From a virus: a stretch of 64,000 nt of DNA. The position numbers and the translations under genes were made by a program. The notes below the pieces were generated by a model. The model ran no database searches and was not told where the DNA came from. It saw only the letters and a list, made by a program, of their open reading frames with translations. The first letter of the stretch is position 1; every line of letters begins with the position of its first letter. Location: IMG/VR virus record IMGVR_UViG_3300020229_000001, positions 30,386 through 94,385 of that record. One strand, written 5' to 3'. Positions 12,691 through 64,000 of the stretch are shown here, in pieces.

Positions 12691-13203
12691 CTAAGAGCCC
12701 CCAAAGGAGATTTGACCTAAATTCGGGACTTGAAATTGTTTCACCTCGGGCGGGGTTGCCGTCATTTGGTTTGCCGCCCGGGCAGCTTGTGGGCCTTGAG
12801 ACACTTGAGCTGCTTGCGGTGACATTCTTGGCGATTGGGTTGTAGCAGCGGGGGAAACGGGCGCTGCTGCCGCTCCGGGTGCTTTAAGCACGCTCGCGTT
12901 GGTTATGCCCTGAGGGGCAGAATATGCCGTTGGCTGCTGCACTGCTGGTGTTACTGAAGCGGAAGTAGAAGGTGATGCAGATGGCGCTGGAAGCCCTTGT
13001 GCAGGCTCTGTCTTTACTGGGTGAGCATCTCCATACGCTTTGGTGAAATCACCGTAGCTCTGTCCTTTTGCGGGGGGAGGAGCGTCAGAGTGAGCCGCAG
13101 CAAACTCACGATTTTTTGTAAAATCCGAGCCAAAAGTAGCATTTAAAAAGTTGGTTCCACCTATTTTTTCAATAAAGTCAGGGTTTTTAAATTTTCCGCC
13201 CAT
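12691..13203 (-). CDS. Low-complexity putative internal virion protein (MGG start, C-terminal QFQVPNLGQISFGGS)
   Basis: Ala/Pro/Gln-rich; ejection-cluster position; shares its C-terminal motif with the two adjacent genes. Confidence 0.7.
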   Translation of the reverse strand: MGGKFKNPDFIEKIGGTNFLNATFGSDFTKNREFAAAHSDAPPPAKGQSYGDFTKAYGDAHPVKTEPAQGLPAPSASPSTSASVTPAVQQPTAYSAPQGITNASVLKAPGAAAAPVSPAATTQSPRMSPQAAQVSQGPQAARAANQMTATPPEVKQFQVPNLGQISFGGS

Positions 13204-13205
13204 AA

Positions 13206-13763
13206 TTAAGATCCTCCAAAGGTTAAGCCCGAAATGCTCGGGAGACGAAAGTTGCTCTGCTCTTGCGCTTGTTGTGTAAGAAAAGCTCCACCGCCACCCG
13301 GCTTATTATAAACTGGAGCATTTTTTACTGCTTTTGTCATGGAAGTTGGTGCGCTAAAATTAGTTGGCGACCCATCGCTCGTAGACATTGGTCCCACAGC
13401 TTGCATTGGTCCCACAGCTTGACTAGCTGTTGTATCTGGAGCAGTTGCCGTAACTGGTCCGCCAAGGGTAGCCTGCCCAACAATGTTTGGATGCTGAATG
13501 TCATAAAGTTTTTTTGCCTGAACGTCAGAGGCTGCTTTTGCTTGAGCATCCGCATTAGCTGCGGCCAAGCTATTTGCCTTCATTAAGTTAAGCCCTACGC
13601 CCGCAGAAACAAGTCCAATTGGCCCCATGAACGGGGCAGTGGCAACCAGTACTGGAGCAAGTTCTTTTGGAACCGCTTTAGTAAATTCTTTTGGAACAGC
13701 CTTGGCTATTTCATTGGGAATCATTTTTGCAACGGCACGAAATCCAGATGACAACCAGCTCAT
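13206..13763 (-). CDS. Putative internal virion protein (C-terminal NFRLPSISGLTFGGS)
   Basis: Amphipathic N-terminus with KAVPKE repeats and a hydrophobic segment; shared C-terminal motif. Start set at MSWLSSG. Confidence 0.7.
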   Translation of the reverse strand: MSWLSSGFRAVAKMIPNEIAKAVPKEFTKAVPKELAPVLVATAPFMGPIGLVSAGVGLNLMKANSLAAANADAQAKAASDVQAKKLYDIQHPNIVGQATLGGPVTATAPDTTASQAVGPMQAVGPMSTSDGSPTNFSAPTSMTKAVKNAPVYNKPGGGGAFLTQQAQEQSNFRLPSISGLTFGGS

Positions 13764-13764
13764 A

Positions 13765-14247
13765 TTATATTCCTCCAAAAGTTACTCCAGTCGTGCGGGG
13801 CATCTGGAATTGTGATTGCTTAGAATTGGGCATAGCTGGGTTTACTGGGCTCAAGTTGCTTCCAGCAAGATTGGCCGCAGTCCGGGGTAGATAGTATGCC
13901 GCTGCGCTTAAATTAGATAGCTTGGCTTGATTTAAGGCATTAACGTCAATTGCGCCACCAGTAATGGCGGACCCAGCCATTCCCGCCTGAGCTGCCGCCG
14001 CCTGTGAGGCAGTAGAATCTTTTGCCTTCTGATAAGCCTGCGCTCGAAGGAGGCTTTGTTGCGCCTGAGAATTACTCTGGTTCATGCCTAGCTGCGCTGC
14101 GTTATTTTGAGCGTCAATCATGGCTCTGCGCTGGGCTTCCGCTGCATCCTGCGCTGCTGCCCCCTGTTGTTGGCGCATCAATTCAATCTGCGCGATCATC
14201 GGAGTGTAATCAGGAGGTGGTGGTGCTGAGTAATGTGATCCGCCCAT
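13765..14247 (-). CDS. Putative internal virion protein (MGGSHYSAPPPPDY start, C-terminal QFQMPRTTGVTFGGI)
   Basis: An MGG..APPPPDY N-terminus is typical of podovirus ejection/pilot proteins; Gln/Ala-rich helices. Confidence 0.7.
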   Translation of the reverse strand: MGGSHYSAPPPPDYTPMIAQIELMRQQQGAAAQDAAEAQRRAMIDAQNNAAQLGMNQSNSQAQQSLLRAQAYQKAKDSTASQAAAAQAGMAGSAITGGAIDVNALNQAKLSNLSAAAYYLPRTAANLAGSNLSPVNPAMPNSKQSQFQMPRTTGVTFGGI

Positions 14248-27817: not shown

Positions 27818-27818
27818 G

Positions 27819-29096: not shown

Positions 29097-29098
29097 AA

Positions 29099-32000
29099 TT
29101 AATACGTTCCGAATGATGCTGCTGTTAAAATTGCGTCTCTGTTGGCTATAGTAAACGAAGTGGCAGTTGCTGCTGCGTTTGTTGGGTTAGCTCCAACAGT
29201 AAACGTCGTGAGGCTGTTGATTGCAGTCACATACAATTGTGCCGCCCCAGTGATCCCAGACGCAATTGCCGCCCCGACAACGAGGCCAGACGTTGTCCCA
29301 GTTGTTAGCGTAATAAGCGCACTTCCCGTTGTCCAAGTGCCAGCCAATGAGACAAGTGCCGTCAGGTATTCAGTGTTTCCATCCCATTCTACGGAATGCA
29401 CTACTGGCGTTGTTTGAACTACCCCAGCTTGAAACTTTGTTGGGGCACTCGTAAGCGTTCCTGCTGCAAAATTTTGCGTTGAACTTGCGGTAAAAGTATT
29501 ACTTGCTAAAACTGCGTTAGTGTTTCCCCTTGAAGCAACAAGGCTAACGGTTAACGAGTCAACGCCAATTTGCGTTCCAGTTGCGCCTGCCACTAAACTC
29601 ACTGTCAAAATAGCCCCTTGGTTGCCTGTACCAGAGGTAATTGTGACTAAAAGAGGCGCAGTTATATTTCCTGTAAACCAGCTTGGACGAACAAGAGAAA
29701 CTCCAGTGCCAATGCTACTTACAACCCAAGGACCACTTTGCGCCAACGCCGTTTGACTCAAAAAAACAGTATCTCCAGTTGCAAGGGTTTTACCATCAAC
29801 TGTCAAAAGAGATGCCGTAACAAGCGTTGTAGGCGTTGAGTTGTAAAGTATTAGAGCCCCAGATCCAGTTGCCCCAGCACCACTGCTCATCGTGATCTGC
29901 GTCGCGCTATCAACTGTTTTAATAACGCCCGCAGCCACCCCCAAATTGATGCTCATCCCAACAACCGGAGTTATTGAGGAGGTTGCAAAAGTAATAACAC
30001 CAGAGTTTTGAGTCCAACTTGCTCCTGCAATCGTTCCGGCAGTTGCGGGAATTACGTTTGACGTTTGCCTGACTGTAACTAATTGCGGCCCTCCAACAAC
30101 GGCCCTTGCGTCTCCTGCGGTTGTAGAAGCAGTCCCACCATTTGCAATCGAAACAGGCGTTGCAATTGCTGGACCTGTAGCTCCAGTGGCTCCTAGCGTG
30201 CCAATTCCTGTGGCCCCGGTAGCTCCGACAGACCCAATCCCGGTTGCTCCAGTCGCTCCAATACTTCCAATACCCGTAGCTCCCGTAGCCCCAGCGGACC
30301 CAATGCCCGTGGCCCCCGTGGCCCCGATTGTGCCGATCCCTGTGGCCCCAGTCGCGCCAATGCTTCCAATTCCCGTTGCGCCCGTCGCGCCTTGCGTTCC
30401 AATTCCCGTGGCTCCTTGAATACCAATGCCCGTAGCTCCCGTTGACCCCTGTGTGCCAACGCCTGTGGCTCCTTGGAACCCTGTAGCGCCCAACCCTGTA
30501 GCACCTTGAAGTCCTTGCGTTCCGACTCCTGTGCTTCCCTGAGTTCCGACCCCCGTGCTCCCCTGAAAGCCCGTCGCACCAAGCCCGGTTGCCCCTTGCA
30601 AACCTTGAGTTCCAAGCCCGGTTGCTCCTTGCAATCCCTGAGTGCCGACGCCAGTAGAACCCTGATAACCAGTGGCCCCCAATCCAGTTGCTCCTTGTAA
30701 ACCTTGAGTTCCAAGACCCGTCGCCCCTTGTAAGCCTTGAGTTCCAAGACCCGTCGCCCCCGTCGCCCCAATGGCTCCGATGCCAGTAGCCCCAGTAGAT
30801 CCAATATTTCCAATCCCGGTTGCTCCTTGCGTCCCGATGCCTGTAGCCCCCGTGGACCCCTGAGTTCCGATCCCGGTTGCGCCCTGATAACCAGTTGCGC
30901 CCTGCCCGGTTGCGCCCTGTACCCCGGTAGACCCAATGCCAGTCGCCCCTTGTAGTCCTTGTGATCCTATGCCTGTGCTGCCTTGATAACCAGTTGCGCC
31001 AACGCCAGTTGCACCTTGGGACCCAATTCCTGTCGCTCCCTGATACCCAGTGCTTCCTTGATAACCCGTTGATCCAATTCCAGTTGCGCCTTGATAGCCC
31101 GTGCTTCCCTGTAATCCAGACGTAACAATAGCCCAAATCAACTGATGGTTATTGGCAAAATTCGTTGTACCGCTGCCGCCAGAAGTTTGAAGCGTTACAG
31201 GAATTACAATGTAAGAATTGTCGCCAATTGTGGGAGTGCCATTAATTTTCCAACTTTGATAATTATCGGAATTGTTTTGATCTTGAATAACAAACGTGTC
31301 CCCATTTTTATAAAGCGGGAAAAATACATCAATGTCATTTCCATTGCCGTCAATGTGCGAGAATGCAATATTTGCGGAAAGTCGCTGTGTAGCGTTGTCC
31401 CATAAAATGTGCCCATTGGTAATTGGCCCAGTAGGAGGCAGAACTTGAGTAGACGTGTCCGCTTGGTAATTAAAGAATGAGGCCGACTGCCCGTTTGCCC
31501 CCGTCAACCCGGTCGCGCCCTGATACCCGGTACTCCCAATCCCAGTCGCCCCTTGATTTCCTACACCAGTGCTGCCCTGATACCCGGTGCTGCCCTGATC
31601 CCCGGTTGATCCGATTCCAGTAGCCCCTTGATATCCAGTTGAGCCAATCCCAGTGCTACCTTGATACCCGGTCGAGCCGATGCCAGTTGCCCCCTGTAAC
31701 CCTTGAGATCCAATCCCGGTGCTGCCCTGATAACCAGTGGCTCCGATGCCCGTAGCTCCCGTGTCTCCTTGAGTTCCGACCCCGGTTGCGCCCTGCGTTC
31801 CAACGCCCGTACTGCCTTGCAATCCAGTTGCGCCGACGCCTGTAGCCCCTTGAATTCCAACGCCAGTACTGCCCTGCAATCCCTGAGTGCCAACGCCAGT
31901 GGCCCCTTGGAACCCCGTTGCGCCCAACCCCGTTGCGCCCTGAGATCCCTGCGTGCCGATGCCAGTCGCACCCTGCAAGCCCTGAGTGCCGATTCCAGTA

Positions 32001-33086: not shown

Positions 33087-34301
33087 TTAAAGCCCAGTTG
33101 CTGCTGTGCTGCAAGGCAACGGCTGACCGTCAAACGGGCAACGCTTGTACAGAATTGGCATGACATTTTGCGGACGAATTGGCTGAATTGCACGGCTGAT
33201 TTGGTAGATGTGCTGACCAAAGTCGCCGTACAAGTTACAGTCATTGTCGCGGAAGTAAGTCCATTCCAGTTCGCCCATTGCAAGCTGCGGGGCAAATTTA
33301 AACGTGCCTTCTCCAGCGTAATTTTCTGGAACCAAACGCTTGAATGCGTCTCCTGCAACAACAAAGCCTACTTCGTAAGGAGCAGAGACCCAATCAGGGT
33401 TCCGGCGCTGGGCAAACCCGTTCGTGACAGCAGTGCTGATGATAGGATTTACAAGCACCAGATTGCCGTTGGAATCAAACCCCGTGGATCGAAGCGGTTG
33501 CTGGTCAATCCCGAACGCAAAGCCACGATAGCCTTGGAACTGGTATCCAGAAATCGAGTCTTCACCGAGTTTGAAGCTGCCAGCGGTTAGGTAGAGCAAG
33601 TCTTCCTTCACGTCAGCGTCGTTGCGAATGTTTTCAATCGCATCGGCAGAGAGCATTACTTGGAAAAACTCACCTTCCTTAGCTGCAAACGGTTCTGCGA
33701 GCATTTCTTCACGCAGGAACGTGCCAGCCCGGTACAACGTCTTGAAGTTCAGCGGACCGTCAGGAAGGGTCTGCGCGAACTTCGTGTTGATGTTCTGCAT
33801 GTCGCCCGTCAAATTGCTCGTGAACGACGCAGTGGTATTCACGACATACTTGACCCCGGACTGGATGAGGTACTGGTAACGGATGTCGGCGTTGATGATC
33901 TGAAGAATGGTCTTCTCCAAGCTGACCTGCGCCTGCAAGTACGAACCCTTGAACGCCGTCCGGGCCTGCTTAACACAGACGCGAGGGCCAGCGCCACGAA
34001 GCGTCTGGAGGCTGAACTGGTACTCCGTAGAACCCACTTGGTCGGGAGTAGCGCCGACGCCGCAAAGCGTGGTGTCCTCGACAAACGTGGGGCTTGCCAA
34101 AGAAGCAGCCGGGACGGCCATTTCTTCGACTACGGAACGCACAACATCAGAGACGTTAGGAAGAGTTCCCCCGTCTATGCTGTTTATGTATGGTGACTTA
34201 CGAGCCAAGACCTTTGCGATCTGGCCGATGATCCTGTTAACATCCTTGGATGCAAAGTTTTGGATCGTTGCGAGTGGGATACAATTGTTTGTGTCTGCCA
34301 T
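33087..34301 (-). CDS. Major capsid protein
   Basis: 404 aa, downstream of portal and scaffold; codon usage appears strongly biased; A/C-rich leader; followed by a stem-loop. Confidence 0.75.
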   Translation of the reverse strand: MADTNNCIPLATIQNFASKDVNRIIGQIAKVLARKSPYINSIDGGTLPNVSDVVRSVVEEMAVPAASLASPTFVEDTTLCGVGATPDQVGSTEYQFSLQTLRGAGPRVCVKQARTAFKGSYLQAQVSLEKTILQIINADIRYQYLIQSGVKYVVNTTASFTSNLTGDMQNINTKFAQTLPDGPLNFKTLYRAGTFLREEMLAEPFAAKEGEFFQVMLSADAIENIRNDADVKEDLLYLTAGSFKLGEDSISGYQFQGYRGFAFGIDQQPLRSTGFDSNGNLVLVNPIISTAVTNGFAQRRNPDWVSAPYEVGFVVAGDAFKRLVPENYAGEGTFKFAPQLAMGELEWTYFRDNDCNLYGDFGQHIYQISRAIQPIRPQNVMPILYKRCPFDGQPLPCSTAATGL

Positions 34302-34362
34302 AACAGTAGGTATTTAAGGTTTTTATCTAGGGTTGGTTTGGTTGGTTTGGTTTTGAGTTGTG

Positions 34363-35346
34363 TTAGTTTGTGAAGACACGGAACCCAAAGCCTGCTTCTT
34401 GACGAGCCGGGTCGGAATAGCTGCGGATCATCGTGCGCTGCGAATTTGCGTCTTGTAACCAACAGCCGCCACGGACTCGGCGACCGTAAATAGGAGCGGC
34501 GTCGTCAAAGCACCATTCGTTGACATTTCCGCCCATATCGTAGAGCGATAACTCATTTGGCGTTTTGCCACGCACTGCTTGAGCGCCTTGGCCATAGGTC
34601 AAGTTGTCTCGAGACCATGCAACAGCAGTTGACGTGTTTGACCCCGGATAGGTGTACGTTCCGCTGGAAACCCCGCCGAACGCCGCCCACTCCCATTCTT
34701 TTTCACCCGGGAGACGATAGCCAGTAGCGGCTGCGTCCACGGAAGGAACAACATCTCCGACGGTGTAAATCACCTTGGCCGTGAGTGTGCCTGTCGCCGT
34801 TGCCGTCCCGCTTACAACCGTCCTGTATGTGAACGCCGTTGGGCTAGTAACGGTGACGCTACGGACTAGGTTGTACCCAGCCGGGGTTGCGCCTGCGACC
34901 TGCACCCAGTTACCCGTGGAAAGCTTGTGCCCTAGTGGGACAATAGCGGTTGCAACAGTGCCTGTGCTCGTTAGTGACCCAACACTCAGGATGGTGGTGT
35001 AATAAACCGGGGTGAGTGTTCCTTGATTTAATGTAGCGGCATTGCACCATTTCAAGGCGTCGTACCAGTTTAGCGTTTCAACCGGGGCAGTGGCAGAATT
35101 GCCAGACCCGGAAAGCTGAAGGTCAAAGCCGTTGGCGTTAGCAAACGTCCGTTGAGCCTGAAACTCAGTCCAGTTCACTTCGGTTTCGCCAGCCTTAAAA
35201 GCAGTTACAGCCTGCCCCTTAAAATTAGTGGCGGCACTCATCGAACTAGTCCCGGTGACGGTGACCAGCGTATTCCAAACAGCTTCGCTCGTGGTAACGC
35301 CAAGAGCGGAGATTGCAACGATCAGAATTCCCTTTAGGAACTTCAT
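34363..35346 (-). CDS. Secreted FGE-sulfatase (C-type lectin fold) domain protein
   Basis: Signal peptide MKFLKGILIVAISALGVTTSEA; motifs PVETLNWYDALKWCN, YRLPGEKEWEWAA, PNELSLYDMGGNVNEWC, RGGCW, GFR. Confidence 0.85.
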   Translation of the reverse strand: MKFLKGILIVAISALGVTTSEAVWNTLVTVTGTSSMSAATNFKGQAVTAFKAGETEVNWTEFQAQRTFANANGFDLQLSGSGNSATAPVETLNWYDALKWCNAATLNQGTLTPVYYTTILSVGSLTSTGTVATAIVPLGHKLSTGNWVQVAGATPAGYNLVRSVTVTSPTAFTYRTVVSGTATATGTLTAKVIYTVGDVVPSVDAAATGYRLPGEKEWEWAAFGGVSSGTYTYPGSNTSTAVAWSRDNLTYGQGAQAVRGKTPNELSLYDMGGNVNEWCFDDAAPIYGRRVRGGCWLQDANSQRTMIRSYSDPARQEAGFGFRVFTN

Positions 35347-35604: not shown

Positions 35605-36192
35605 TCAGCTCGCTTTTTGCATGCTAAACATTTCCTGCATTATTGCTGATCTCTTCTTGTCGCCGCTGCTTTTTATATGTGCCACTCGCTCAAGTAATAA
35701 ACCAAATCCCGGATCGCACCCAAGGATGTCTATTTCCGGACAAACAATTTCATTTTTGCTCAACTCTTCGGAAATAAATTTACGAATTGCGCCAAGGCAA
35801 TGATCCGGCGAGGCGTAAAATAAATACGCAGGACCTTCATTCAGCATAAGCGTGTTTGTTGTTTCGCTTTTTGCAATCTGCGGAGTCAAATCTAGATTAA
35901 GGACATCGTAATCGGACATCCAACCTCCTCCAGCGGCATGCAGGGCGCACCAACGAGTGAACCGAAATTGAAACCATGCAGCGCGGGCCACAAGCCCGTT
36001 GTTCTTATTAAGCTCTTGGGCCAATTTTTGCTGTAACTTATTGTACAATGGACTTCCCTGTGCGTGAGATCGGTTGAGCATCACGGGATTCCACCCGTTA
36101 GCCGTCCACGATGTCTTCCACCAGTTGGCGCAGGCAAATTCCTCGGGCTGATCTGCGGTCGGAATTGATTGATAAAATGCGTAAATATTCAT
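35605..36192 (-). CDS. Putative GT-A glycosyltransferase (DxD type)
   Basis: SWTANGW, RWCAL..GGWMSDYDV pattern. Start MNIYAFY overlaps the upstream stop (TGATG). Confidence 0.6.
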   Translation of the reverse strand: MNIYAFYQSIPTADQPEEFACANWWKTSWTANGWNPVMLNRSHAQGSPLYNKLQQKLAQELNKNNGLVARAAWFQFRFTRWCALHAAGGGWMSDYDVLNLDLTPQIAKSETTNTLMLNEGPAYLFYASPDHCLGAIRKFISEELSKNEIVCPEIDILGCDPGFGLLLERVAHIKSSGDKKRSAIMQEMFSMQKAS

Positions 36193-37205
36193 CAGTACGT
36201 TTTGTAACCGAGGTGCTTTACAGGAATTCCAAGGTCGATATGGCATTGATGCCCCGCCTTTTTTGCTCGTCTGCAAAAAGCAACATCCTCACTGGCTCCC
36301 GTTGTTGGTAAAAAGTAATCGCCTTTCACTTCTGGTTGCGTGGCGGCAATGTCTTCAAACACTTTTCGGTGGATCATAATACAACCAGCGCCGATCCAGT
36401 CTACAGCAGCCACTTTGTCGGCAAACGCCCGGGCGTCAGCCACAAGCGACTGGTCGCTGCACATCAGCCGTGCGCCTTCCTGCCTGCCAAAGTAAGCGGC
36501 CCCGACAAGTTGCTTGCCCGCGCCCATAAGGCGGTGCAGAACGTGTCGCAGCAGCGGCTGATCCAGCATGCTGCGAGTTGACTCTACCCAGCTCTTGTAC
36601 CAAGCCGCTCGGCCAATACTCGGGATGATGTCGTGGTCCAACATGAACAGCCACTTGGCGTCTGTTTCAAGGAACTTTTGAGCAATCATATTTCGGGCAA
36701 CATGGATCTCTGTGTTAATCACGCAATCAAACCGAATGCGGTCTTTCCCAAAATCCAGCGCCATTGCCAAAAGCGCCATCGTCGTTACTGGGTTGCTTGT
36801 TCCATACCAAGGCAAACCAACAAATATATCCCGCCCGGCAAACTCGCAGCGGTACGAAGGCATTCCGTTTTGATCGTGGGACTCTGTGATTGGATTGGTG
36901 AACAATTCCTCTACGGTTTCTGGTCCTTGCGCAGAAACCGTAACGTCAGCAGGCTCTAGCTCCTTGATTTCTTCAAGAACGGCCTTGGGGCGTCGGCGCC
37001 TGCGCTCCTTACTTTCAATGGCAATGTCAATCAAATCGTCGCCTTCTATATCCCGTTGCGTAATTGGATCTTGGTCCGGATCAGGCATCCTTGCGGCAGG
37101 GCGACCACCCAACGTCTGCGGCGGGCGCACCGGGGTTGAAAACGGGTTAGCGGAATCTAGCGCCGAAAGAGTACGACGCTCCATTGGAGAGATTTTTTGC
37201 TCCAT
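36192..37205 (-). CDS. GT2-like glycosyltransferase with an N-terminal disordered extension
   Basis: ARNMIA, WLFMLDHDI, IGAGCIMIHRKVFE, SEDVAFCRRA, VKHLG motifs. Confidence 0.85.
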   Translation of the reverse strand: MEQKISPMERRTLSALDSANPFSTPVRPPQTLGGRPAARMPDPDQDPITQRDIEGDDLIDIAIESKERRRRRPKAVLEEIKELEPADVTVSAQGPETVEELFTNPITESHDQNGMPSYRCEFAGRDIFVGLPWYGTSNPVTTMALLAMALDFGKDRIRFDCVINTEIHVARNMIAQKFLETDAKWLFMLDHDIIPSIGRAAWYKSWVESTRSMLDQPLLRHVLHRLMGAGKQLVGAAYFGRQEGARLMCSDQSLVADARAFADKVAAVDWIGAGCIMIHRKVFEDIAATQPEVKGDYFLPTTGASEDVAFCRRAKKAGHQCHIDLGIPVKHLGYKTY

Positions 37206-42170: not shown

Positions 42171-42686
42171 CTACAGAACAAACTCGTGGTGACACTTTGG
42201 ACAGATTGTAGTGTCTGAGGGCTCTTTTTGCGGTTTTTCCGCAGAAACAGGCTCAATATCTGGAGAACCGAGGAGTTCATCCAATTCTTCCTTACTGAAC
42301 CCCAGCGCACTCACGTCAAAGTCTTCTTCCCGGAGAGCGTCAACCTCTGCGGCCAGCACGTCGTAATCCCACGCAGCCATCGTTGCCAGTTGATTGTCTG
42401 CAATGGTGTAAGCCCTAACCATTGCGTCATCAAGGTGCGCCAACACGATGCAGGGGATCTGCTCGAGCCCTGCTTTCTTTGCTGCCAACACCCGTCCATG
42501 CCCGGCGATGATGCGCCCAGAGGAGTGGATGAGCACAGGGTTCGTAAACCCAAAAGTCTTGAGCGAGTCAGCCAGTGCCTCCACCTGTGCGTCAGAATGC
42601 ACCCGGGCGTTCTGTGCGTATGGTTCCAGCTCACCAACCGAGCGCATGACTACTTCAAGTCGTTCTTTTTTAATGGCGCTTTTCAT
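42171..42686 (-). CDS. ParB/Srx-like N-terminal domain protein with C-terminal CxxC
   Basis: PYAQNARVH, FGFTNPVLI, IIAGHGRVLAA, YTIADNQL, CPKCHHEF. Confidence 0.9.
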   Translation of the reverse strand: MKSAIKKERLEVVMRSVGELEPYAQNARVHSDAQVEALADSLKTFGFTNPVLIHSSGRIIAGHGRVLAAKKAGLEQIPCIVLAHLDDAMVRAYTIADNQLATMAAWDYDVLAAEVDALREEDFDVSALGFSKEELDELLGSPDIEPVSAEKPQKEPSDTTICPKCHHEFVL

Positions 42687-43971: not shown

Positions 43972-45846
43972 TTATTCAGAGAAATCCACAAAGCTCACAG
44001 CCGAATCCACCAAGGACACTAGTTCCTTTCCAACAGGCTCTGGCTTTTGCTCACTCATAGTAGCCACGTTCCCGCCCCTCTGCCTCATCAAATGCACAAG
44101 CATCGAAAGAGAATCCAGCGCATCGGGCGACCCCAGCCGAGTTCTCTTAATGTAATCCTTCTTGCTCTCCACCCGGACCATGCCCTGCCCCTTTTGCATG
44201 TATCGCCGAGAGATAGCCTGCTTGGTCAGATCCTCATTCCGAAACCCCGGGCTGATCTTGAGCCACTCAAACTCAAGGTACTTACCCAGCGCAAACAGTA
44301 GCTCAGTCACCAGCCCGTTATACAGCTCGCTTGCCTTCTGGCTGTCGTCTCCCATCACAGGCGTGTCCGTCGCCGCCCAGCTATAGTTCAAGCCCATCAC
44401 CTCGCTGCCAAACGTCGAGCACAGCACATCGTGAATCCCCGCGCCGTTCCCGGTTCGGTCCACGCACAGCCAACGGGGGCTGATCTTCATCTGCTTGCAG
44501 AACTTCGCGATGGCCTGCGCCTGCTCAAGCGTAGCCGCCTTAGGAAAGGGCATCTGACTGTCGAGCTGCATCATCGTCCGAGGGCGTTTGAAGTCGTGGA
44601 ACTTCCCAGAGCGGTCGGTCCAGCCGTCGCTCAATCCAAACCGTCCGTAGCTGCACAACACTTGGTCAACGCCTTCTAGGGCAAGATCGAACGAAGCCAA
44701 CGGTACAACCGGACCTATGAACCTCACGATGCCCTGTGCGTTGTCCATCATCGCTGGACTGATAATGCCCATGCTGATGCCTTCGTCAGGGAACCAGCCG
44801 CGAGCCATTGTCGATGCCTCTGCCGTGCGTCCCTTGCTCACGTAGGCCATGTAGCCTTCGTACGTCTGAAGCCCGTGGAACACCACCCGGCGTTCCTTCA
44901 CGTTCTCGGAGTCTGCTCCGTCCAGCCGGATCACCTGCCAGTCGTCTCGGCTTCGCCAGTCCCTGTCCAACTCCATGTCTATGCTGCCCCATCCAAACTT
45001 CGGTTCGCACCGCTGGCCGAACTGGCTTGTCCTGTCTCGAGGGTTCGACGCAGCAAACACCTTGATCCGTCCCGGGGTGCTCGAGTCCGCTGCCGTCAGA
45101 CAGTTCATGACGCCAGCCCAGACGCCGTCCGGGACCTCCTCAGCCTCATCCAACACTATGTGCGTCCGGGACACCTTGCCCCACCGGGGGTGCGCCGGGC
45201 CAAACCGGGGCGACGGGTGGAACCCACGCAGGCTCCCGTGGCCGCTCTCCCCCTTTGGTATGGCGACCAAATGGATGCCTTGCTTGCTGTCGGTCGTGGA
45301 TTGGATGCTCGTGGCGAGGTCGTCGTCCATGCCCCCGGGGCGGACCAGCGCCGTCCGATGGAATGTCTTGATCGAGGCGAAGATGTTTCGCGTAGCGTGA
45401 GCAGCCGTCAGCGAGACGACCTTGATGCACGTCCAGTCCGGGTCCCTGTACCAGTCAAGGTAGAACCATGCCGCTGCCCCGTAGCTCTTGCCCATCGACC
45501 CGGCTCCCTGCACCAACAGCTTGTCCGTGCCCATCAGGCCCTCCCATACCCGGCGGCAGCTCTCGGGCCTCCAGTCGAACGCCCCGGGTCCCCACAGCAG
45601 GATGGCCGCAGGCTCGAACAGGTCAGCGTCGAGCAGGTGCTGAACGTAGCTGCGAACGATCCGTTCCGCCATTGCCTCGGTGAGGGCTAGCTTGCCTCGG
45701 TGCTGGAGTGCCGCTGAAGCAATGTAGGCCGCGCAACGGATTAGCCCGCGCTCCTCACTAGAGTCAGCCAGCTCCCGGGCCTCGGTAGCGATGCGGATCG
45801 CCCGGGCTACCGGGGGTGGCAGTGTGGTGAGGAGGTCGTCGCTCAT
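43972..45846 (-). CDS. terL: Terminase large subunit
   Basis: Walker A GAGSMGKS, Walker B IVLDEAEE, ASNP coupling motif; RNase H-like nuclease motifs FDLA, VDRTGNGAG, SPDALDS. Confidence 0.92.
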   Translation of the reverse strand: MSDDLLTTLPPPVARAIRIATEARELADSSEERGLIRCAAYIASAALQHRGKLALTEAMAERIVRSYVQHLLDADLFEPAAILLWGPGAFDWRPESCRRVWEGLMGTDKLLVQGAGSMGKSYGAAAWFYLDWYRDPDWTCIKVVSLTAAHATRNIFASIKTFHRTALVRPGGMDDDLATSIQSTTDSKQGIHLVAIPKGESGHGSLRGFHPSPRFGPAHPRWGKVSRTHIVLDEAEEVPDGVWAGVMNCLTAADSSTPGRIKVFAASNPRDRTSQFGQRCEPKFGWGSIDMELDRDWRSRDDWQVIRLDGADSENVKERRVVFHGLQTYEGYMAYVSKGRTAEASTMARGWFPDEGISMGIISPAMMDNAQGIVRFIGPVVPLASFDLALEGVDQVLCSYGRFGLSDGWTDRSGKFHDFKRPRTMMQLDSQMPFPKAATLEQAQAIAKFCKQMKISPRWLCVDRTGNGAGIHDVLCSTFGSEVMGLNYSWAATDTPVMGDDSQKASELYNGLVTELLFALGKYLEFEWLKISPGFRNEDLTKQAISRRYMQKGQGMVRVESKKDYIKRTRLGSPDALDSLSMLVHLMRQRGGNVATMSEQKPEPVGKELVSLVDSAVSFVDFSE

Positions 45847-46256
45847 AGTAGCTTGAATTCAGCGATGGGGATGTGCGCCATCGACTCGATATCTTGTGCG
45901 TCTGCCCTGTCCCGCCTGCCGCCCGAACGCACTTCGTATCGCTCGGGTTGCACCCATCCAAGGCAGTCCGTCCACTGCACCACCAACATAAACGGCAGGT
46001 TAGTCTGTTCAGCAAGGGCGCGACCCGCCAGCATCTTTGCCTCGGACACTGCGTAGGTGTCGTACTGCGATTGAGGGTTGCTGCGGCACTTGATCTCGAC
46101 CCACGCCATCAGCCTGCCGTTGCGATACAGGGCATAGTCCACCCCGCATAGCTTCGGCATCCGCAACCCCTGACATCGCCACCGCTCAAACAGTGTCTCC
46201 ATCACTGCCGCCTCGTTGGCTCGGTCCGCCTCTGTCTCGTAGATGGGTCGGCTCAT
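45843..46256 (-). CDS. PD-(D/E)XK nuclease
   Basis: VDYAL..WVEIKCR motif. Confidence 0.75.
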   Translation of the reverse strand: MSRPIYETEADRANEAAVMETLFERWRCQGLRMPKLCGVDYALYRNGRLMAWVEIKCRSNPQSQYDTYAVSEAKMLAGRALAEQTNLPFMLVVQWTDCLGWVQPERYEVRSGGRRDRADAQDIESMAHIPIAEFKLL

Positions 46257-46363
46257 CGCCACGGGTTTGCCCAGCGCCACATGTACGCCAGCGCCCCCAG
46301 CGACACCATCCCGTAGAGGATGCCGATGAAGTCGCCGACACGGATGTCTACTCCGATGATCAT
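46253..46363 (-). CDS. 36-aa membrane peptide
   Basis: Manual translation MIIGVDIRVGDFIGILYGMVSLGALAYMWRWANPWR; ATGA overlap with the next gene. Confidence 0.45.
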   Translation of the reverse strand: MIIGVDIRVGDFIGILYGMVSLGALAYMWRWANPWR

Positions 46364-46367
46364 GCGG

Positions 46368-46670
46368 TCACGGACGAAGGATGATGCGGCCATTGCTGCG
46401 ACCCAGTGGCTGTACGAACAGTCCCGTGGCATCCCGGCGGACCCGAAGACGCTGTGTCTGGCCGAGCAGCCAGCCGGGGTTGGCCGTGGGACCGCTGCCT
46501 GTGGGCTGTGTGCGCTTGAAGACAGCGAACGTCTTGGAGACGGCCACGCACAGGAACGTCAAGTCAGGCATGACTGCGGCCTCGGCGTTGTTCTGCTCGT
46601 CGTAGGGGCGCAGTCCGTAGTTAGTCAGTGAGTTGGTGTAGGTGTTACCCTCGGTGAAGTAAGTTGCCAT
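46368..46670 (-). CDS. Hypothetical protein
   Basis: 100-aa ORF with an A/C-rich leader like other genes of this phage. Confidence 0.55.
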   Translation of the reverse strand: MATYFTEGNTYTNSLTNYGLRPYDEQNNAEAAVMPDLTFLCVAVSKTFAVFKRTQPTGSGPTANPGWLLGQTQRLRVRRDATGLFVQPLGRSNGRIILRP

Positions 46671-46784
46671 AATAGGTGTAGGTTGCTGATTGGTTGATGT
46701 TTACGAGCTAAAAGCAGTGGGGTTTTCCACTCCATATGACTTATGTTGTACGGGGTTATGGGTAAGTTGTTGAGTTTTAGATGC

Positions 46785-47333
46785 TTACAAGGGTGCTGTT
46801 GTAGCGTGCTTTAGAACCTCGTCTAACCCGGGCTGATTCATCGGTGCAGACTGATACATCAGCTCTGCTGCCTCAGGGGCGACAATGACGGCCTCCATCC
46901 ATTCCCGGGGTGGGTTGGGATGGTTGCGATGGTAGACCTCGAAGGTCAGCTTAATGTCACCACCAGTGTCCAGCGTCACATTGTCAGCCAGTTCCCCAGC
47001 GAGCTTAGCGTCGGCCATCAGAGCGCCCAGACGGTCAAAGGTCGCCTCGATCTTCCCGTCGGTCTTCTTGACGACCCGGGTTGGCACGGTCCCCTCGATC
47101 ATTTGCCGCAGCAGGTCCCGCTTGTTGTCGATGGCCATGAGGGACCGACAGTTGACCTCGGTCTGGATTTCCGCGATGCGGGCCTTGATGTCAACCTTCT
47201 TGTAGAGCTGGTAGCCGATCTGCCCGGGATTGTTGGCATGCGGGGCAAGCTGGGTGTAAGCCGACTTGCGGTCCAGTCCTTCGGCGACAAGCCAGCAGAA
47301 TCGCTCGTGCAGTCTGTTGGTCAAACGAGGCAT
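46785..47333 (-). CDS. terS: Terminase small subunit
   Basis: N-terminal HTH (HERFCWLVAEG..SAY..IKARIAEIQ); upstream of TerL. Confidence 0.75.
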   Translation of the reverse strand: MPRLTNRLHERFCWLVAEGLDRKSAYTQLAPHANNPGQIGYQLYKKVDIKARIAEIQTEVNCRSLMAIDNKRDLLRQMIEGTVPTRVVKKTDGKIEATFDRLGALMADAKLAGELADNVTLDTGGDIKLTFEVYHRNHPNPPREWMEAVIVAPEAAELMYQSAPMNQPGLDEVLKHATTAPL

Positions 47334-47420
47334 GATCAGCGGGTTAGAACAGAGACGGCAGAAAAGGGGGCGCGACCCACAGTGTTGGAGTTTGTTGTCA
47401 TTGTAGTGCTTTTGGGTTGG

Positions 47421-47449
47421 ATAATGCCTGTTTACATCATTGAGGTCAA
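47421..47449 (-). promoter_or_regulatory. Sigma70-like promoter upstream of terS
   Basis: TTGACC-17 nt-CATTAT. Confidence 0.5.
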
Positions 47450-47493
47450 ACGGATGATTTTGGGCGTTGTAGTCAGAATTGTTAAAATATACG

Positions 47494-47532
47494 AAAAAAC
47501 CGTCAAACCACTTGATTTGGCTTGACGGTTTT
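47494..47532 (-). terminator. Intrinsic terminator ending the early region
   Basis: AAAACCGTCAA/TTGACGGTTTT inverted repeat with a U6 tract. Confidence 0.7.
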
Positions 47533-47554
47533 GATTACCCTTATTTCCGACAGG

Positions 47555-47860
47555 CTATCGATGGACTGAGGATAGAGCGGCGGCTAAGGCGGCTGCGACG
47601 GGATTGATGGGTGCGACCTTATGACCTTGGGTTTGCTTGTAGCTGGCGGCTGATCGATTGATGTTTTCGACCCGATGAATAGCCTTGATGGCCTTAGCAG
47701 CCTCAGCCTGCTGGTGTTTAGCGATGACGACTGGCGGCGATTCGTGGGTGAGGTCGCCGTTGGTTAGCTCTTCGTAGACTGGGCAGATGTCCCGGTGGAA
47801 GTCGGTTAGTTCAGCCCCGCAGGAACAGGCGACGGTGCGGTTGTGGAATCGTTTACTCAT
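47555..47860 (-). CDS. Hypothetical protein (CSC..H..C)
   Basis: Packed ORF ending before the terminator. Confidence 0.5.
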   Translation of the reverse strand: MSKRFHNRTVACSCGAELTDFHRDICPVYEELTNGDLTHESPPVVIAKHQQAEAAKAIKAIHRVENINRSAASYKQTQGHKVAPINPVAAALAAALSSVHR

Positions 47861-48197
47861 AACATTGCTTGGATTTTTCTGCATCCTCCCATTTACCCAA
47901 CGCCCGCAGGAAAGCCTCTGCACGTTGGCGGGCGGTGGCATTCCAGACGTACCGCGATGCTGGATGATTTTCTAAACGCTCGCGCAGGTGTTTTCTGATG
48001 AAAACACATTGTTCATCCGTCAGCACCTTCTCCGCCTCATGCATGGCGTTGAGGTCGTTACAGTAGTCCTCAATTCCAGTCCGGCCCCCGTCGTGCGTTT
48101 TCGAATTAACCCCCATCAACCCAAACTCTGGGTGCTCAATGATGTCAGTCCACCCGCACGCCTCGGCTATCGCCGTGTTGATCTGTTGGTCGTTCAT
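47853..48197 (-). CDS. NinX/ABA-sandwich-like phage protein
   Basis: INTAIAEACGW..DYCNDLNAMHEAE..ATARQRAEAFL pattern. Confidence 0.6.
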   Translation of the reverse strand: MNDQQINTAIAEACGWTDIIEHPEFGLMGVNSKTHDGGRTGIEDYCNDLNAMHEAEKVLTDEQCVFIRKHLRERLENHPASRYVWNATARQRAEAFLRALGKWEDAEKSKQCYE

Positions 48198-48520
48198 TTC
48201 CCCTCCTTTGCTGCCGCGATAAGTTCGTCCGCTTCGTCTAATGCCATATCTGCCCCGTAGCACCAATCTTGCGCCAAGAACATCGCCGCAATCTCCAGCC
48301 GCGAGGGTTCTGGGCGGGTGTGCGCGGTCTCTGCAAGGGCTTTCTCAAGCTTTTCCAGTTCGTGTCCTCTGCTGACTCGCCGGGCGTTTGCTTGGCCCTC
48401 GAGCAGCTCGGCCCGCTCGGAGTCGACGATGACTGTGACGTGGGGGTGACGGTTGTCTGCGAGCCACTGCATGAGTGGCATGGCTGCTTCCCGGAAGGCC
48501 TTGAATTCTTGTTCGATCAT
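48194..48520 (-). CDS. Hypothetical protein
   Basis: PLMQWL..HPHVTVIVDS..AELLEG plus EPSRLEIAA..ADELIAA. Confidence 0.6.
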   Translation of the reverse strand: MIEQEFKAFREAAMPLMQWLADNRHPHVTVIVDSERAELLEGQANARRVSRGHELEKLEKALAETAHTRPEPSRLEIAAMFLAQDWCYGADMALDEADELIAAAKEGK

Positions 48521-60503: not shown

Positions 60504-61214
60504 TTAGAACGTCCTAGTCTCCCACAACTTCCGAGCGCCCGCAACATCAATGCTTGACTTCCCGATGCGGTCATTCACTGCGTTATGCAGACAAACTCCC
60601 CACGCAAAGAATTCACCAAAGTCAGCAGGGTTAAGTGCCATCCATTCTTTAAGGTGTGCCTCGCACGGGCAACCGTCAAACGGGAGAGAAGCCACCCAAG
60701 CCTCAAGCCAGTATCGCATGTCACCAAACGGGATGCATGTGGCATCAGCCCGGAGGCTATAGAGGTGCAGCTCCGCCCAGTACCGGGCTCCCTGCATAAG
60801 AATGCGGCTCTTTTGAAGTTCGCTACGCTGCTCAATCCGTTCAACCTCATTGCCGACATCAAACACCCATTTGTCGTGCGTTTCCCAGTCCGTGGACGTG
60901 GCTATTGCGGCTTCCCGCTCCAATGCCATTGCTACGACGTGCTGACGGTGATACGGGGCAGCAGGGTCGTCCCCGGGCTCCTCGAGCTTGGGGTTGTCGG
61001 TGTCAAACTTGGTCACCTGCTCATCGGTAATGCCGTCGCGTTTGCACAAAAACGCTTCGACCATCTCGTGGATTGCCACGAGCAGGACCGAAACGTCCCG
61101 GCCACCGTACTCTGGGACCTTGAGCATTAGTGCTCCATCGGCCAACCATTCCCAGTCGCCAGCCGTTGGGTAACGCATTGCGCTGGGGTCTACAGTCTTA
61201 ATTTCAATCCTCAT
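60504..61214 (-). CDS. Fusion: zincin-like domain plus Erv1/Alr-like sulfhydryl oxidase domain
   Basis: N-half AIHEMVE..EPGDDP.APYH.QH..E; C-half YWAELH..LPFDGCPCEAH..FAW..LHNAVNDRIGK. Confidence 0.7.
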   Translation of the reverse strand: MRIEIKTVDPSAMRYPTAGDWEWLADGALMLKVPEYGGRDVSVLLVAIHEMVEAFLCKRDGITDEQVTKFDTDNPKLEEPGDDPAAPYHRQHVVAMALEREAAIATSTDWETHDKWVFDVGNEVERIEQRSELQKSRILMQGARYWAELHLYSLRADATCIPFGDMRYWLEAWVASLPFDGCPCEAHLKEWMALNPADFGEFFAWGVCLHNAVNDRIGKSSIDVAGARKLWETRTF

Positions 61215-62475
61215 CGAATGTTGATAGCCCGATTTCTTTCATCTTATCAATTTGCTCACGCACCTGCTCAATCGCCCCGGTCTTTCCCTCGAGGTAGTAC
61301 CCCTCGACAAGCTCGGCGTTCTCGAGCGCATGATCAAAAGCTTCTTCTAGCGTGTTTCCAAGTCCAACAACTGCGCCAATTTCCGGGAGTCCGCAGGATT
61401 GTGGAATAACAAAGTACCCACGGTCATCTTTGTAAATATTCCGCAATTTAACGTAATCTCGGATCTCTTCAGGAAACCGCAGCGGTTGCCAATTCTTGTC
61501 TGCAAAGCTGCTATGAAGCATGATCTCCGCCCCGTACTTAGCAACGGGCTCCGGGTTGATCACAACTCCGTTTGCCCCGGCCCAGATACACTCGGCCAAA
61601 TTTTTGTACTGTTCTTGGTAAAGCTCATTCGGAGGACTAGGAGCCCGAGCGCAGAAATCGATCATGTACGGCTTGTGGTCAGCCCCAATGCGGATCTCGG
61701 ACGAGAAAAAACCACGATAGCCGTAAGCCTGAAACACCGGGACCATGCGGTCGTTGAATCGGCGAAGAGGTTCCGGGATGTCAGCGTAATTCTTGAATAC
61801 TGATGCAAATCCGCAGTCTTTAACTTCAATGCCGCTAATCAGCGTCTTGGGAAATTGGCCGTCAATTGTCCAAGCATCGGTTCCAAATTCAATCTTATCG
61901 TCGAGAGCCTCTTCGACCGTGAATTCGATGATGTCTTTGAACCTACCAAGACCCCACTCAACCTCGTCGAGTTTAGGCTCCACAAGGTCGTAGGAGAGGC
62001 TGTGGAACGTTTCAAACGTCCCACGGTACTTGTCAGTCTTGACGTAGACATTGGGGTGGTCTTTAAGGAACTCTCGAAGATCCGCCATGCCCTTGACGTG
62101 AGTGTATTGACCCACAGGCATGTCTATCGCCTTGAGGATCTCTTTCATGCCCTCCCGGTTTAACTCGAGGCATTCCCCGGTCCGAGACCCCCAGACAACC
62201 TTGCCCATTTTGAGCAAGTGTTCCTGTTCCCATCCAAAATAGATGTCCGGGAAGCAGAACAGGTCAATCTCGTCAAAGTGTGGGCCGTAGATTGAATCTA
62301 CAAGCTCCAGCTCTTCAATGCCTGTGCCGATTTTGGCGAGGTTTAGCCTCGGAAAAGCAGACTCCCACGGGACGTAGTAGTACACTTTCTTGTACGTCTT
62401 CGCGAGCTTGATTGCCAACTCGCAGAACAACCCGTTATCAACAACGAGGCAAACTACGTCTTTAGGGTCTTTCAT
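61204..62475 (-). CDS. PurD-like ATP-grasp ligase
   Basis: VWGS..LELNR..K..DMP, VYVK, VEEAL..IE, GYRGFFS..YMIDFCARAPSP align with GAR synthetase motifs, but the GPNTGGMG loop is missing. Confidence 0.8.
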   Translation of the reverse strand: MKDPKDVVCLVVDNGLFCELAIKLAKTYKKVYYYVPWESAFPRLNLAKIGTGIEELELVDSIYGPHFDEIDLFCFPDIYFGWEQEHLLKMGKVVWGSRTGECLELNREGMKEILKAIDMPVGQYTHVKGMADLREFLKDHPNVYVKTDKYRGTFETFHSLSYDLVEPKLDEVEWGLGRFKDIIEFTVEEALDDKIEFGTDAWTIDGQFPKTLISGIEVKDCGFASVFKNYADIPEPLRRFNDRMVPVFQAYGYRGFFSSEIRIGADHKPYMIDFCARAPSPPNELYQEQYKNLAECIWAGANGVVINPEPVAKYGAEIMLHSSFADKNWQPLRFPEEIRDYVKLRNIYKDDRGYFVIPQSCGLPEIGAVVGLGNTLEEAFDHALENAELVEGYYLEGKTGAIEQVREQIDKMKEIGLSTFDED

Positions 62476-62675
62476 TTTTTCTTTTTTACAGGCTTTTTCA
62501 TTTTTGCCAAAGTCCCCATTTTTGCTGGTTTGGCGGGGTTTGCTGTCTTTGCAGACTGCTTGAATGCCTTTGATGTTGGAGCACCCTTGGCTCCGGGCTT
62601 ACGCATCTTTTCGCCGCTACCAGCAGCAATGCGTTTCCGTTTAGCGTTTACGTTAGCGTAGAGTCCTTCTTTCAT
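62472..62675 (-). CDS. Small basic phage protein (GLYAN.NAKRKRI.AGSGEKMRKPG type)
   Basis: Recognisable Lys-rich small-protein pattern; ATGA overlaps at both ends. Confidence 0.75.
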   Translation of the reverse strand: MKEGLYANVNAKRKRIAAGSGEKMRKPGAKGAPTSKAFKQSAKTANPAKPAKMGTLAKMKKPVKKKK

Positions 62676-62728
62676 TTGCAGTTCCAACGTTTGAGTGATG
62701 CGGCCTTCCGAGTTACGTTTTTTGGCAT
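62672..62728 (-). pseudogene. Internally deleted 18-aa remnant of the DUF6321-like gene
   Basis: MPKNVTRKAASLKRWNCK occupies the same position as the gene at 1-205, with the same MPK start joined to a DUF6321-like C-terminus. Confidence 0.6.
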
Positions 62729-62729
62729 A

Positions 62730-64000
62730 TTATTCTTCGTCTTCTCCTTCAGCTTCTTTTCGCAGTTTTTCTGCCGCTTTGATTGCTTTTTCTTTTTCCA
62801 TCAATTGCTTCAAAAGTCCTTTATTTGGTGACTTTACGCCAGTCAATTGAGCCTCATCGGCCTCGGACAAGAGTCGCACTGTTTTCCCTTTACGATCCAC
62901 TTGGAACAAACCTCCAGCTTGGATGATGTCCAAAGAAAACTTGGCGGCGTCAGCGTAGTCCGCTGGTTCTGCTCCGCTGGTGGCCGCGCCGTACTTCCCA
63001 AACAGCTCCTTCTCATTAAACCACAAGGCGGCTTGCATGTCAGCAATCGAAACATTAATCCCGGCCTGAGCGAGCCTAGCCTGAGCCTGTTCCATTGTCG
63101 TCTGTTGAAAAGCACGCTCATTACTTGCCCGGGGGGCGGCAAGCGGCGTCGTTCGATCTTGAACCCAATTCTTGGCGGCTCTTCGTAATTCGGTTTTTCC
63201 CTTGAAGCTGCCAGTTCTGAACACTTTTTCGAGGTGCTCCGCAAACTGAAGCAGTGCGCCACTATCTTCCAATAATTTGTGAAACTCTTTTTTGGAGCCT
63301 TTAGGGGCGTCCTCGCCGTAGAGGTAAGGCTCTTCGACTCCTTTTTTAATAAGCACTCGGTCGGTGTACTCTTTGCCTTTTTTGATGGCTTGATTCCGAT
63401 TGTATTCCTCAATCAACGAGTCTTGGAACCGCTCAAATTGATGCCCCTCCTTGAGAGGATCATACTTAAATGAGCGACCAAGAATTCGATTCCACGTTCG
63501 GGTATACCAAAGGTCGGCGGTGAGGGTCGAGTAGTCGCCATGAAGGTTATTAATAAACGATCCGATTTTTGGCCCAAAGACCATAAACCCGGTCACCATT
63601 TGATTTTTACCGCCCTCAACAGACAGCGGCTCCCCGTTGTAATACAGGGAAGTGTCTTGCTTCAGATTCTTGTTCCAATTTGCAACAGTGTCCGTTTTGA
63701 ACAAAAGGGTTCGGAGCTGGCTTGGGGTATGTCTTGTCAGCAACTCGTGCAATTTTAATATGTTGTTTTCAATCGCGGCAGTCTTGTCGCCAAACGTGCC
63801 ATGCAGTGCGGTGACAATCTCTGGAAGAGTTTTGCCCTGCTCCAGCATTAGAGTCACCCGAGTTGCCATCTTTCCATTCTCGAAGACGTCGTTGCCCTGA
63901 GACGCAATCCCGAGAACCGCATCGAAAACAAGGCTCTTGTCTGCGTCGTGCTGGGGAGACCCAACCTCGAGCCACGGAAAGAGTTGCGAGTACATTCCCT
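62730..64000 (-). CDS. 3' end of a second, diverged copy of the giant polyvalent gene; truncated by the window edge
   Basis: 408/421 aa identical to the C-terminus of the 3468-aa protein. Confidence 0.9.
   Translation of the reverse strand, partial: GMYSQLFPWLEVGSPQHDADKSLVFDAVLGIASQGNDVFENGKMATRVTLMLEQGKTLPEIVTALHGTFGDKTAAIENNILKLHELLTRHTPSQLRTLLFKTDTVANWNKNLKQDTSLYYNGEPLSVEGGKNQMVTGFMVFGPKIGSFINNLHGDYSTLTADLWYTRTWNRILGRSFKYDPLKEGHQFERFQDSLIEEYNRNQAIKKGKEYTDRVLIKKGVEEPYLYGEDAPKGSKKEFHKLLEDSGALLQFAEHLEKVFRTGSFKGKTELRRAAKNWVQDRTTPLAAPRASNERAFQQTTMEQAQARLAQAGINVSIADMQAALWFNEKELFGKYGAATSGAEPADYADAAKFSLDIIQAGGLFQVDRKGKTVRLLSEADEAQLTGVKSPNKGLLKQLMEKEKAIKAAEKLRKEAEGEDEE

Follow-up and report, generated by a model that had tools for sequence, protein, structure and literature searches.

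A PurD-like ATP-grasp ligase paired with an HExxE and Erv-type fusion protein in a phage genome: a possible small-molecule amidoligase cassette

We analysed a 64,000-nucleotide (nt) stretch of viral DNA, here called the window, which covers bases 30386-94385 of a viral record of 94,385 nt, and focused on two overlapping genes encoding a PurD-like ATP-grasp ligase of 423 amino acids (aa) and a 236-aa protein with an HExxE motif (Table 1). The initial annotation had taken this pair for a candidate protein-ligation system, in which a zincin-like peptidase trims proteins ending in FGG-X and the ligase joins the resulting glycine carboxylate to other proteins. Our results tentatively favour another reading, namely that the gene pair is a variant, with an oxidase fusion and no decarboxylase, of a widespread cassette that would couple a small amine to an acid as an amide.

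The gene pair and its position on the map

All genes in the window are encoded on the minus strand. Both open reading frames (ORFs) of the pair proved to be real and, as the initial annotation had stated, they overlap: the stop codon of the ATP-grasp gene and the start of the next gene share 11 nt (ATGAGGATTGA). Upstream, a basic gene of 71 aa shares ATGA with the start of the ATP-grasp gene. Promoter and terminator scans around the gene pair gave background level only. From about 62.5 kb on, the record repeats the genome in the form of a diverged allele, and thereby amounts to about 1.5 genome lengths. Because of this repeat, the ligase and fusion genes can be placed after the giant virion gene of 3468 aa, where they close the virion operon on the circular map, which bears out their proposed location just downstream of the ejection genes.

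The two alleles were then compared. The 3' end of the giant gene is near-identically repeated (window 62730-64000 versus 207-1475), and a second copy of the ligase with 73% identity is located immediately to the left of the window start, where it directly follows the giant virion gene (window 207-10613) and an 89-aa basic gene differing from the 71-aa one. This other allele (positions 27559-31824 of the record, G000; locus L084) also encodes an Erv fusion, with the sequence GCPCKAH. It appears either that two related phages were joined when the record was assembled or that the record is a concatemer of heterogeneous units.

Table 1. Features of the gene pair and of related genes, in window coordinates
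Feature	Position	Strand	Basis
PurD-like ATP-grasp ligase, 423 aa	61204..62475	-	AF2, Foldseek, VIA, profile alignment to 1vkz
Second protein, 236 aa, whole ORF	60504-61214	-	ORF list; carries HExxE motif
N-domain, residues 1-130 of the 236-aa protein	60825..61214	-	conservation in alignments A2, A3, A4
HEMVE motif, H49-E53	61056..61070	-	sequence and family conservation
Erv1/ALR-type FAD sulfhydryl oxidase domain, residues 136-236	60507..60809	-	PF04777, PDB 3gwl, VIA
G-C-P-C (C182, C184), where Erv proteins have the redox-active CxxC	60663..60674	-	alignment
Lysine-rich protein, 71 aa, translationally coupled (ATGA) to the ligase	62472..62687	-	PHROG 16028
C-terminal part of the second giant virion protein gene copy, cut by the record end	62730..63995	-	context
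Three tandem proteins ending FGGS, FGGS, FGGI	12691..14247	-	sequence

Fold and motifs of the two proteins

The AlphaFold2 (AF2) model of the ligase was confident (predicted local distance difference test, pLDDT, 92.6; predicted TM-score, pTM, 0.91), and 13 PurD structures were its best fold matches over the full chain (Foldseek E ~1e-18, TM-score 0.62-0.76). With the VIA aligner, Z was 27-31 to the 13 PurD entries (361-381 residues aligned) versus 24 to PurT, about 23 to PurK and 22 to biotin carboxylase, a lead of 3-7 units, and the N, B, A and C domains of the PurD architecture are all present. The PurD likeness proposed at the outset thus holds for the whole protein. Furthermore, when a profile of 34 ligase homologs was compared with PDB sequences, PurD of Thermotoga maritima (1vkz) was the only near-significant one (E 0.0026), with Y-R-G-F and D273-F-C275-A-R277...P-P-N-E of the ligase aligned to E-Y-N-V-R...D-P-E-T-E. 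Like PurD (EC 6.3.4.13; PF01071/PF02843, TIGR00877; 2yw2, 1vkz, 3lp8, 1gso), the ligase is therefore a four-domain ATP-grasp protein, and the two share, at 14-18% identity over about 370-380 aligned residues, the ATP lysines, Y-R-G-F, the catalytic Arg and the PPxE/DPE segment. Unlike PurD, the ligase is not matched by the PurD family models, has D-x-C for E-x-N, has no DHKR or GPNTGGMG and stands in no purine pathway context.

Across 71 diverse members of the ligase family, the invariant residues are G50, D71, G96, E104, R107, K111, K146, R151, E155, G177, E188, E196, D200, E217, D273, R277, P281 and N292, and C275 is kept in 69 sequences. The ATP-grasp features comprise the fold together with K111, K146, E188, D273 and R277, whose roles were assigned by alignment to PurD. 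In the magnesium-binding motif, D273-x-C275 replaces E-x-N, so that the acidic ligand and the Arg are kept and Asn becomes Cys. The ligase is very probably an active enzyme, as its invariant residues include the ATP-grasp lysines, the hinge Glu, the Asp expected to bind magnesium and the catalytic Arg.

We also considered a true PurD, carried as an auxiliary metabolic gene to raise purine synthesis in the host. The best structural match is indeed PurD, and purine enzymes are named in the deposited annotations of homologs from Aquificae viruses, yet this explanation is extremely improbable. TIGR00877 (purD) gave 15 bits on the ligase against a cut-off of 288, and PF01071 (GARS_A) had no match at E<=1 in the whole record, whereas all 14 control genomes matched; the E-x-N magnesium motif is replaced as described above; and the PurN, AIRS (PurM/PurL) and PurF-type GATase families (PF00551, PF00586, PF00310) had no match in the 94-kb record, whereas the control genomes matched. 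The lack of another purine gene, and that of the PurD loop DHKR..GPNTGGMG, of which neither string occurs in the ligase, had been correctly noticed by the initial annotation. The ligase is derived from PurD and is not the PurD of the purine pathway.

The family is large and mostly viral. No Pfam or PHROG match was obtained for the ligase, while a protein search returned more than 607 homologs and the corresponding ESM Atlas cluster has 1,438 members, 96% of them viral; BFVD held no close viral structure (best TM-score 0.47). The phage GenBank collection contained only three ligase homologs (26-28% identity), all from Aquificae viruses, and none of the second protein. These hot-spring virus homologs (BK013345.1, BK013346.1, BK013347.1; loci L081 and L082), which are located between the portal and terminase genes, have been deposited as 'phosphoribosylamine-glycine ligase' or 'phosphoribosylaminoimidazole carboxylase', and are probably misnamed. 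Their flanking genes gave no Pfam matches and no match to our N-domain or decarboxylase models.

The second protein consists of two domains (AF2 pLDDT 92.6). In 24 diverse members of its N-domain, H49, E53, D71, E79, P80, P87, Y88, H92 and E99 are invariant, and the HEMVE motif spans residues 49-53. The motif is therefore H49-E50-x-x-E53 and not the HExxH of zincins, and the position of the zincin base, E50, is Ala or Ser in three of the 24. Since two His and four acids are invariant, the conservation pattern suggests a metal site, possibly a binuclear one. The fold matches, taken from the AF2 model of the whole protein, were weak, with Z of 4.4-5.4 in the background range of the aligner (selecase, abylysin, YbeY, PprI, SPRTN, CapP and BepA), and eight of about ten were zincin-like. 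As in small zincin-like hydrolases, the minigluzincins among them (selecase 4qhf, abylysin 4jiu, YbeY 1oz9/1xm5, IrrE/PprI 8sln, SprT/SPRTN 6mdx), a three-stranded sheet appears to be followed by a helix with H-x-x-x-[metal ligand] and by a later H/E helix; unlike them, the N-domain reaches only these background Z values, has HExxE with a variable base Glu and matches no peptidase family in sequence. A weakly zincin-like fold with a probable metal site is thus the description that we retain, and the assignment as a 'zincin-like peptidase' was not accepted.

No Pfam, NCBIfam or PDB sequence match to the N-domain was found, even with a profile, and PHROGs yielded nothing for the second protein. 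The N-domain profile itself matches 1,853 clusters at 50% identity (E<=0.001) from phages, candidate phyla radiation (CPR) bacteria, Acidobacteria and Thaumarchaeota, mostly stand-alone proteins of 120-190 aa. The longer proteins are fusions with HNH endonucleases or a tandem duplication, and are uninformative on function. Several N-domain proteins (P0259, P0300, P0339) bear an N-terminal HNH-type homing-endonuclease module, and such modules probably come from endonuclease insertions beside the N-domain gene in phages.

The C-terminal half, residues 136-236, which the initial annotation had overlooked, is confidently matched to the Erv1/ALR sulfhydryl oxidases. It matches PF04777 at 29.3 bits (cut-off 27.6), as do 26 of the 36 alignment members, and its match in the PDB is pB119L of African swine fever virus (ASFV; 3gwl, E 7.5e-7). 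VIA gave Z of 12-14 over 97-106 residues to ASFV pB119L, Erv1, Erv2 and mimivirus R596, with a root-mean-square deviation of 2.2-2.9 A for most Erv1/ALR matches and 5.0 A for Erv1 3w4y. In common with this family (PF04777; ASFV pB119L 3gwl, mimivirus R596 3gwn, baculovirus P33 5xki), the domain has the helical fold that binds flavin adenine dinucleotide (FAD) and the W..H and HNxVNxxxxK motifs, kept here on the flavin side as W..LH and LHNxVNxRIGK. FAD binding and thiol oxidase activity are accordingly predicted from these motifs. In contrast to the family, it has C182-P-C184 for the redox CxxC, without exception among the fused homologs, it follows a metal-type domain of unrelated origin in the same polypeptide, and it is encoded by a tailed phage.

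Conserved neighbours in viruses and cells

We then investigated which genes accompany the ligase and the N-domain. The viral sample comprised 80 IMG/VR loci with the ligase (43-88% identity), and the N-domain adjoins the ligase in 51 of them, fused to Erv in about 32 and standing alone in about 19. In the more remote loci, the ligase gene is flanked by those of the large terminase and a P22-type portal. For prokaryotes, a degenerate DNA pattern for the E-P-G-D...A-P-Y...H motif recovered, from contigs of bacteria and archaea, 53 true N-domain genes, whose commonest conserved neighbour was a PurD-like ATP-grasp gene (18 loci, median gap 1 nt), a figure that shows the linkage from the N-domain side only, since the contigs were chosen through the N-domain. 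The two genes were on the same strand in 16 of 19 cases. The CPR neighbours match GARS_A, GARS_C and TIGR00877 with 86-114 bits, far short of the equivalog cut-off, and these weak matches bridge the phage ligase family to PurD. In CPR and Acidobacteria, the pair has a chromosomal setting, with a histidine kinase and a transporter as neighbours.

In a quick FastTree phylogeny of 87 ligases, whose prokaryotic rows were selected through the N-domain, linkage to the N-domain was spread over most of the major branches. Because both genes stay adjacent across such deep divergence, a functional link of the ligase to the HExxE domain is supported, and the coupling seen by the initial annotation is upheld in this respect. 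The Erv fusion, in turn, is confined to one subclade of the tree (31 rows, the window included), within which it has been lost repeatedly.

The third recurrent partner is a homolog of the AdoMet_dc family of pyruvoyl enzymes (PF02675, E 1e-7), to which S-adenosylmethionine decarboxylase (AdoMetDC) belongs. It is encoded directly upstream of the ligase in 24 viral loci, several of which hold the ligase, the N-domain and the AdoMet_dc-like gene together, and in a phage-like contig the three form a row, with AdoMet_dc between the other two. The ligases of the decarboxylase-bearing loci are 43-49% identical to that of the window, share with it D-x-C, the location in virion or packaging operons and, frequently, the HExxE-domain partner, and are nested in the same tree, where linkage to the decarboxylase occurs on at least three branches. 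Beyond these 24 loci, a Saccharibacteria locus (L121) carries a canonical AdoMet_dc gene (E 6e-28) that adjoins the N-domain, the ligase and an EamA transporter being close by, and in a further locus (L174) an AdoMet_dc-family gene lies directly beside the ligase. None of five complete phage genomes encodes a spermidine synthase, so the partner of the decarboxylase is the ligase and not SpeE. The viral AdoMet_dc-like proteins (six in our alignment) keep the pyruvoyl-precursor Ser and the active-site Cys. Phage AdoMetDC homologs have been described as ornithine or arginine decarboxylases (PMC9992855, PMC10407285). Taken together, the oldest unit is the PurD-like ligase with the N-domain, and the decarboxylase family is its recurrent third member.

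Neither partner is always present. Four complete genomes with terminal repeats (G001, G002, G004, G005) have the ligase and the decarboxylase-like gene, with the N-domain nowhere in them. At three ligase loci that lack both partners (L064, L039, L060), the upstream ORFs gave a pectin-lyase-like match or nothing.

In ten loci of ammonia-oxidising archaea (Thaumarchaeota/Nitrososphaerota), a stand-alone N-domain gene lies about 140 nt from SelR/MsrB (methionine-R-sulfoxide reductase, E 3e-52) on the same strand, and no ligase was detected at these loci. This neighbour is a second tie of the N-domain to sulfur and redox enzymes, in one lineage only.

A putative amidoligase cassette and its alternatives

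The nearest fold of the ligase is PurD, in a clade that acts on small molecules, which counts for a small-molecule amidoligase. With an amine-forming decarboxylase family as the third member and a transporter in the cellular example, an amidoligase cassette for a small amine is the simplest model. The amidation of a metabolite, listed by the initial annotation as an alternative next to that of glycans and DNA bases, agrees better with our results than protein ligation does, the recurrent third partner being of the AdoMetDC family. By analogy with PurD, the ligase would activate a small carboxylate as an acyl phosphate and pass the acyl group to a primary amine, which in many relatives would probably be supplied by the adjoining pyruvoyl decarboxylase of the AdoMetDC family. 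Since the window phage has no decarboxylase gene, it would use an amine of the host, such as a polyamine or agmatine. The N-domain most likely binds one or two metal ions via H49, E53, H92 and E99 (with D71 and E79), and may act on the same metabolite, most simply as the amide-hydrolysing or editing half, like the amidase half of Gss. As for the Erv fusion with its C-P-C centre, we speculate that the metabolite bears a thiol group or that redox conditions regulate the pair. Judged by gene position alone, at the end of the virion operon, the cassette is probably active late in infection.

Gss, the glutathionylspermidine synthetase/amidase of E. coli, links polyamine with thiol and redox chemistry; its amidase is of the CHAP cysteine type, and its ligase belongs to a clade other than the PurD-like one. 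The likeness to the present cassette is one of logic only, an ATP-dependent carboxylate-amine ligase combined with a hydrolase of the same amide, while the phage cassette has a metal-type domain and a ligase of another clade. A more specific version of the amidoligase model would have the cassette make and redox-cycle a low-molecular-weight thiol-amine conjugate not known before, as a phage counterpart of glutathionylspermidine or trypanothione, with the ligase forming the amide, the metal domain hydrolysing or editing it and the C-P-C flavin oxidase making the disulfide. This version is very unlikely as it stands; if true, it would mean that host thiol and polyamine chemistry is rewired late in infection. 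The nearest phage precedent is the amidoligase cassettes of LUZ24- and HMO-2011-type phages, composed of an ATP-grasp enzyme, a glutamine synthetase-like amidoligase, a GATase and a gamma-glutamyl cyclotransferase (PMC3890496, citing Iyer et al. 2009). They likewise combine a phage ATP-grasp ligase with accessory amide-handling enzymes, but differ in the shorter ATP-grasp protein (291 aa), in the other partners and in their location in the early region instead of the virion operon.

Several observations weigh against a small-molecule amidoligase cassette. The fold support for a hydrolase is weak at the Z values of the N-domain, and a position in the virion and packaging operon fits a role on virion proteins or DNA equally well. 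No AdoMet_dc gene was matched in the window or in either allele, and the clade of the window is also without the decarboxylase and carries the Erv fusion instead. Moreover, viral AdoMet_dc-like proteins have Asp in place of His68, which is essential in the T. maritima AdoMetDC (PMC10407285), and may thus be inactive, whereas the cellular and L174 versions keep His. The N-domain is not obligatory, since the four complete phage genomes have the ligase without it. Finally, many of the viral loci are close kin and do not count as independent observations, and the prokaryotic linkage is one-sided, as stated above.

The protein or peptide ligation first proposed, in which the N-domain trims C-terminal FGG-X and the ligase joins the Gly carboxylate to virion or basic proteins, at their N-terminal Gly or at Lys, was examined through the distribution of the FGG-X proteins. 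The tag is real and conserved in the lineage of the window. It has the C-terminal form F-x-x-P-x4-[GD]-x-x-F-G-G-X, occurs on one to three adjacent virion-module proteins whose bodies differ, and was found in four relatives of this phage lineage (G011 8818-10416, G012 26727-28113, G013 45772-48380, G015 33769-34305). Together with the cassette at the end of the virion operon, it gives this proposal some footing, and some ATP-grasp enzymes, such as RimK, LysX and TTL, do modify proteins. However, the tag is confined to this lineage and its phyletic pattern is unrelated to that of the ligase, which occurs independently of FGG-X proteins; the four complete genomes of the distant group carry the ligase with neither FGG-X proteins nor the N-domain, which goes against the trim-and-ligate model. 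The pair is also found in the CPR and Acidobacteria chromosomal contexts described above, the nearest folds are small-molecule enzymes, and the zincin base Glu is not invariant. Nor is the basic neighbour, a suggested ligation target, conserved: the 71-aa gene is restricted to the four closest loci, and the other allele has an unrelated 89-aa basic gene there. Protein ligation by the cassette is accordingly very unlikely, and the FGG-X tag may be a sorting or processing signal.

A modification of DNA, nucleotides or glycans, in which the ligase, in the course of packaging, attaches an acyl or aminoacyl group to a base or sugar that bears an amine, would agree with the location of the ligase in relatives between terminase and portal, or portal and terminase, and with the ParB-like nuclease and the glycosyltransferases encoded by the phage; the natural amine substrate of PurD is, after all, ribosylamine. 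We regard it as quite unlikely, as no hypermodification genes (hydroxymethylase, base-kinase, deazaguanine) were recognised beside the ligase among the ORFs of >=150 aa scanned, and the CPR and Acidobacteria contexts argue for a cellular metabolite.

Alternatively, the two genes may have unrelated jobs, with the Erv fusion forming, within the cytoplasm, the disulfides of virion proteins that contain cysteine, as in poxviruses and ASFV, the ligase acting separately and their adjacency reflecting operon packing. The closest matches of the Erv domain are viral sulfhydryl oxidases, and the restriction of the fusion to a single ligase subclade, with repeated losses there, is in line with such a division. 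On the other hand, the Erv domain was never seen apart from the N-domain in the 80 loci, the N-domain keeps its tight linkage to the ligase in phages as well as in bacteria and archaea, and C-P-C stands in place of the canonical CxxC, which together make unrelated jobs unlikely.

The amidoligase cassette, to which we return as the favoured reading, has no counterpart that we could find described: the literature searched contained no description of the ligase, the N-domain or a phage Erv fusion, and neither the ligase family nor the N-domain family has a Pfam or NCBIfam model or a solved structure. Solving the cassette would provide a function for a large domain family and a phage auxiliary pathway new to science, probably one leading to an amide of a polyamine-type amine. 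It would also show whether a sulfhydryl oxidase of the Erv type, a family otherwise characteristic of eukaryotes and the large DNA viruses that infect them, is functional in a tailed phage, and it guards against annotation error, since relatives have already been deposited as 'phosphoribosylamine-glycine ligase' or 'PurK'.

As for the remaining genes of the window, no link to the ligase was found for the glycosyltransferases, the kinase-like protein and the ParB-like protein. These were recognised by PHROG hits at positions 22339-25070, 34363-35346, 36192-37205 and 42171-42686; the glycosyltransferases number two or three, and the ParB-like feature is a nuclease domain.

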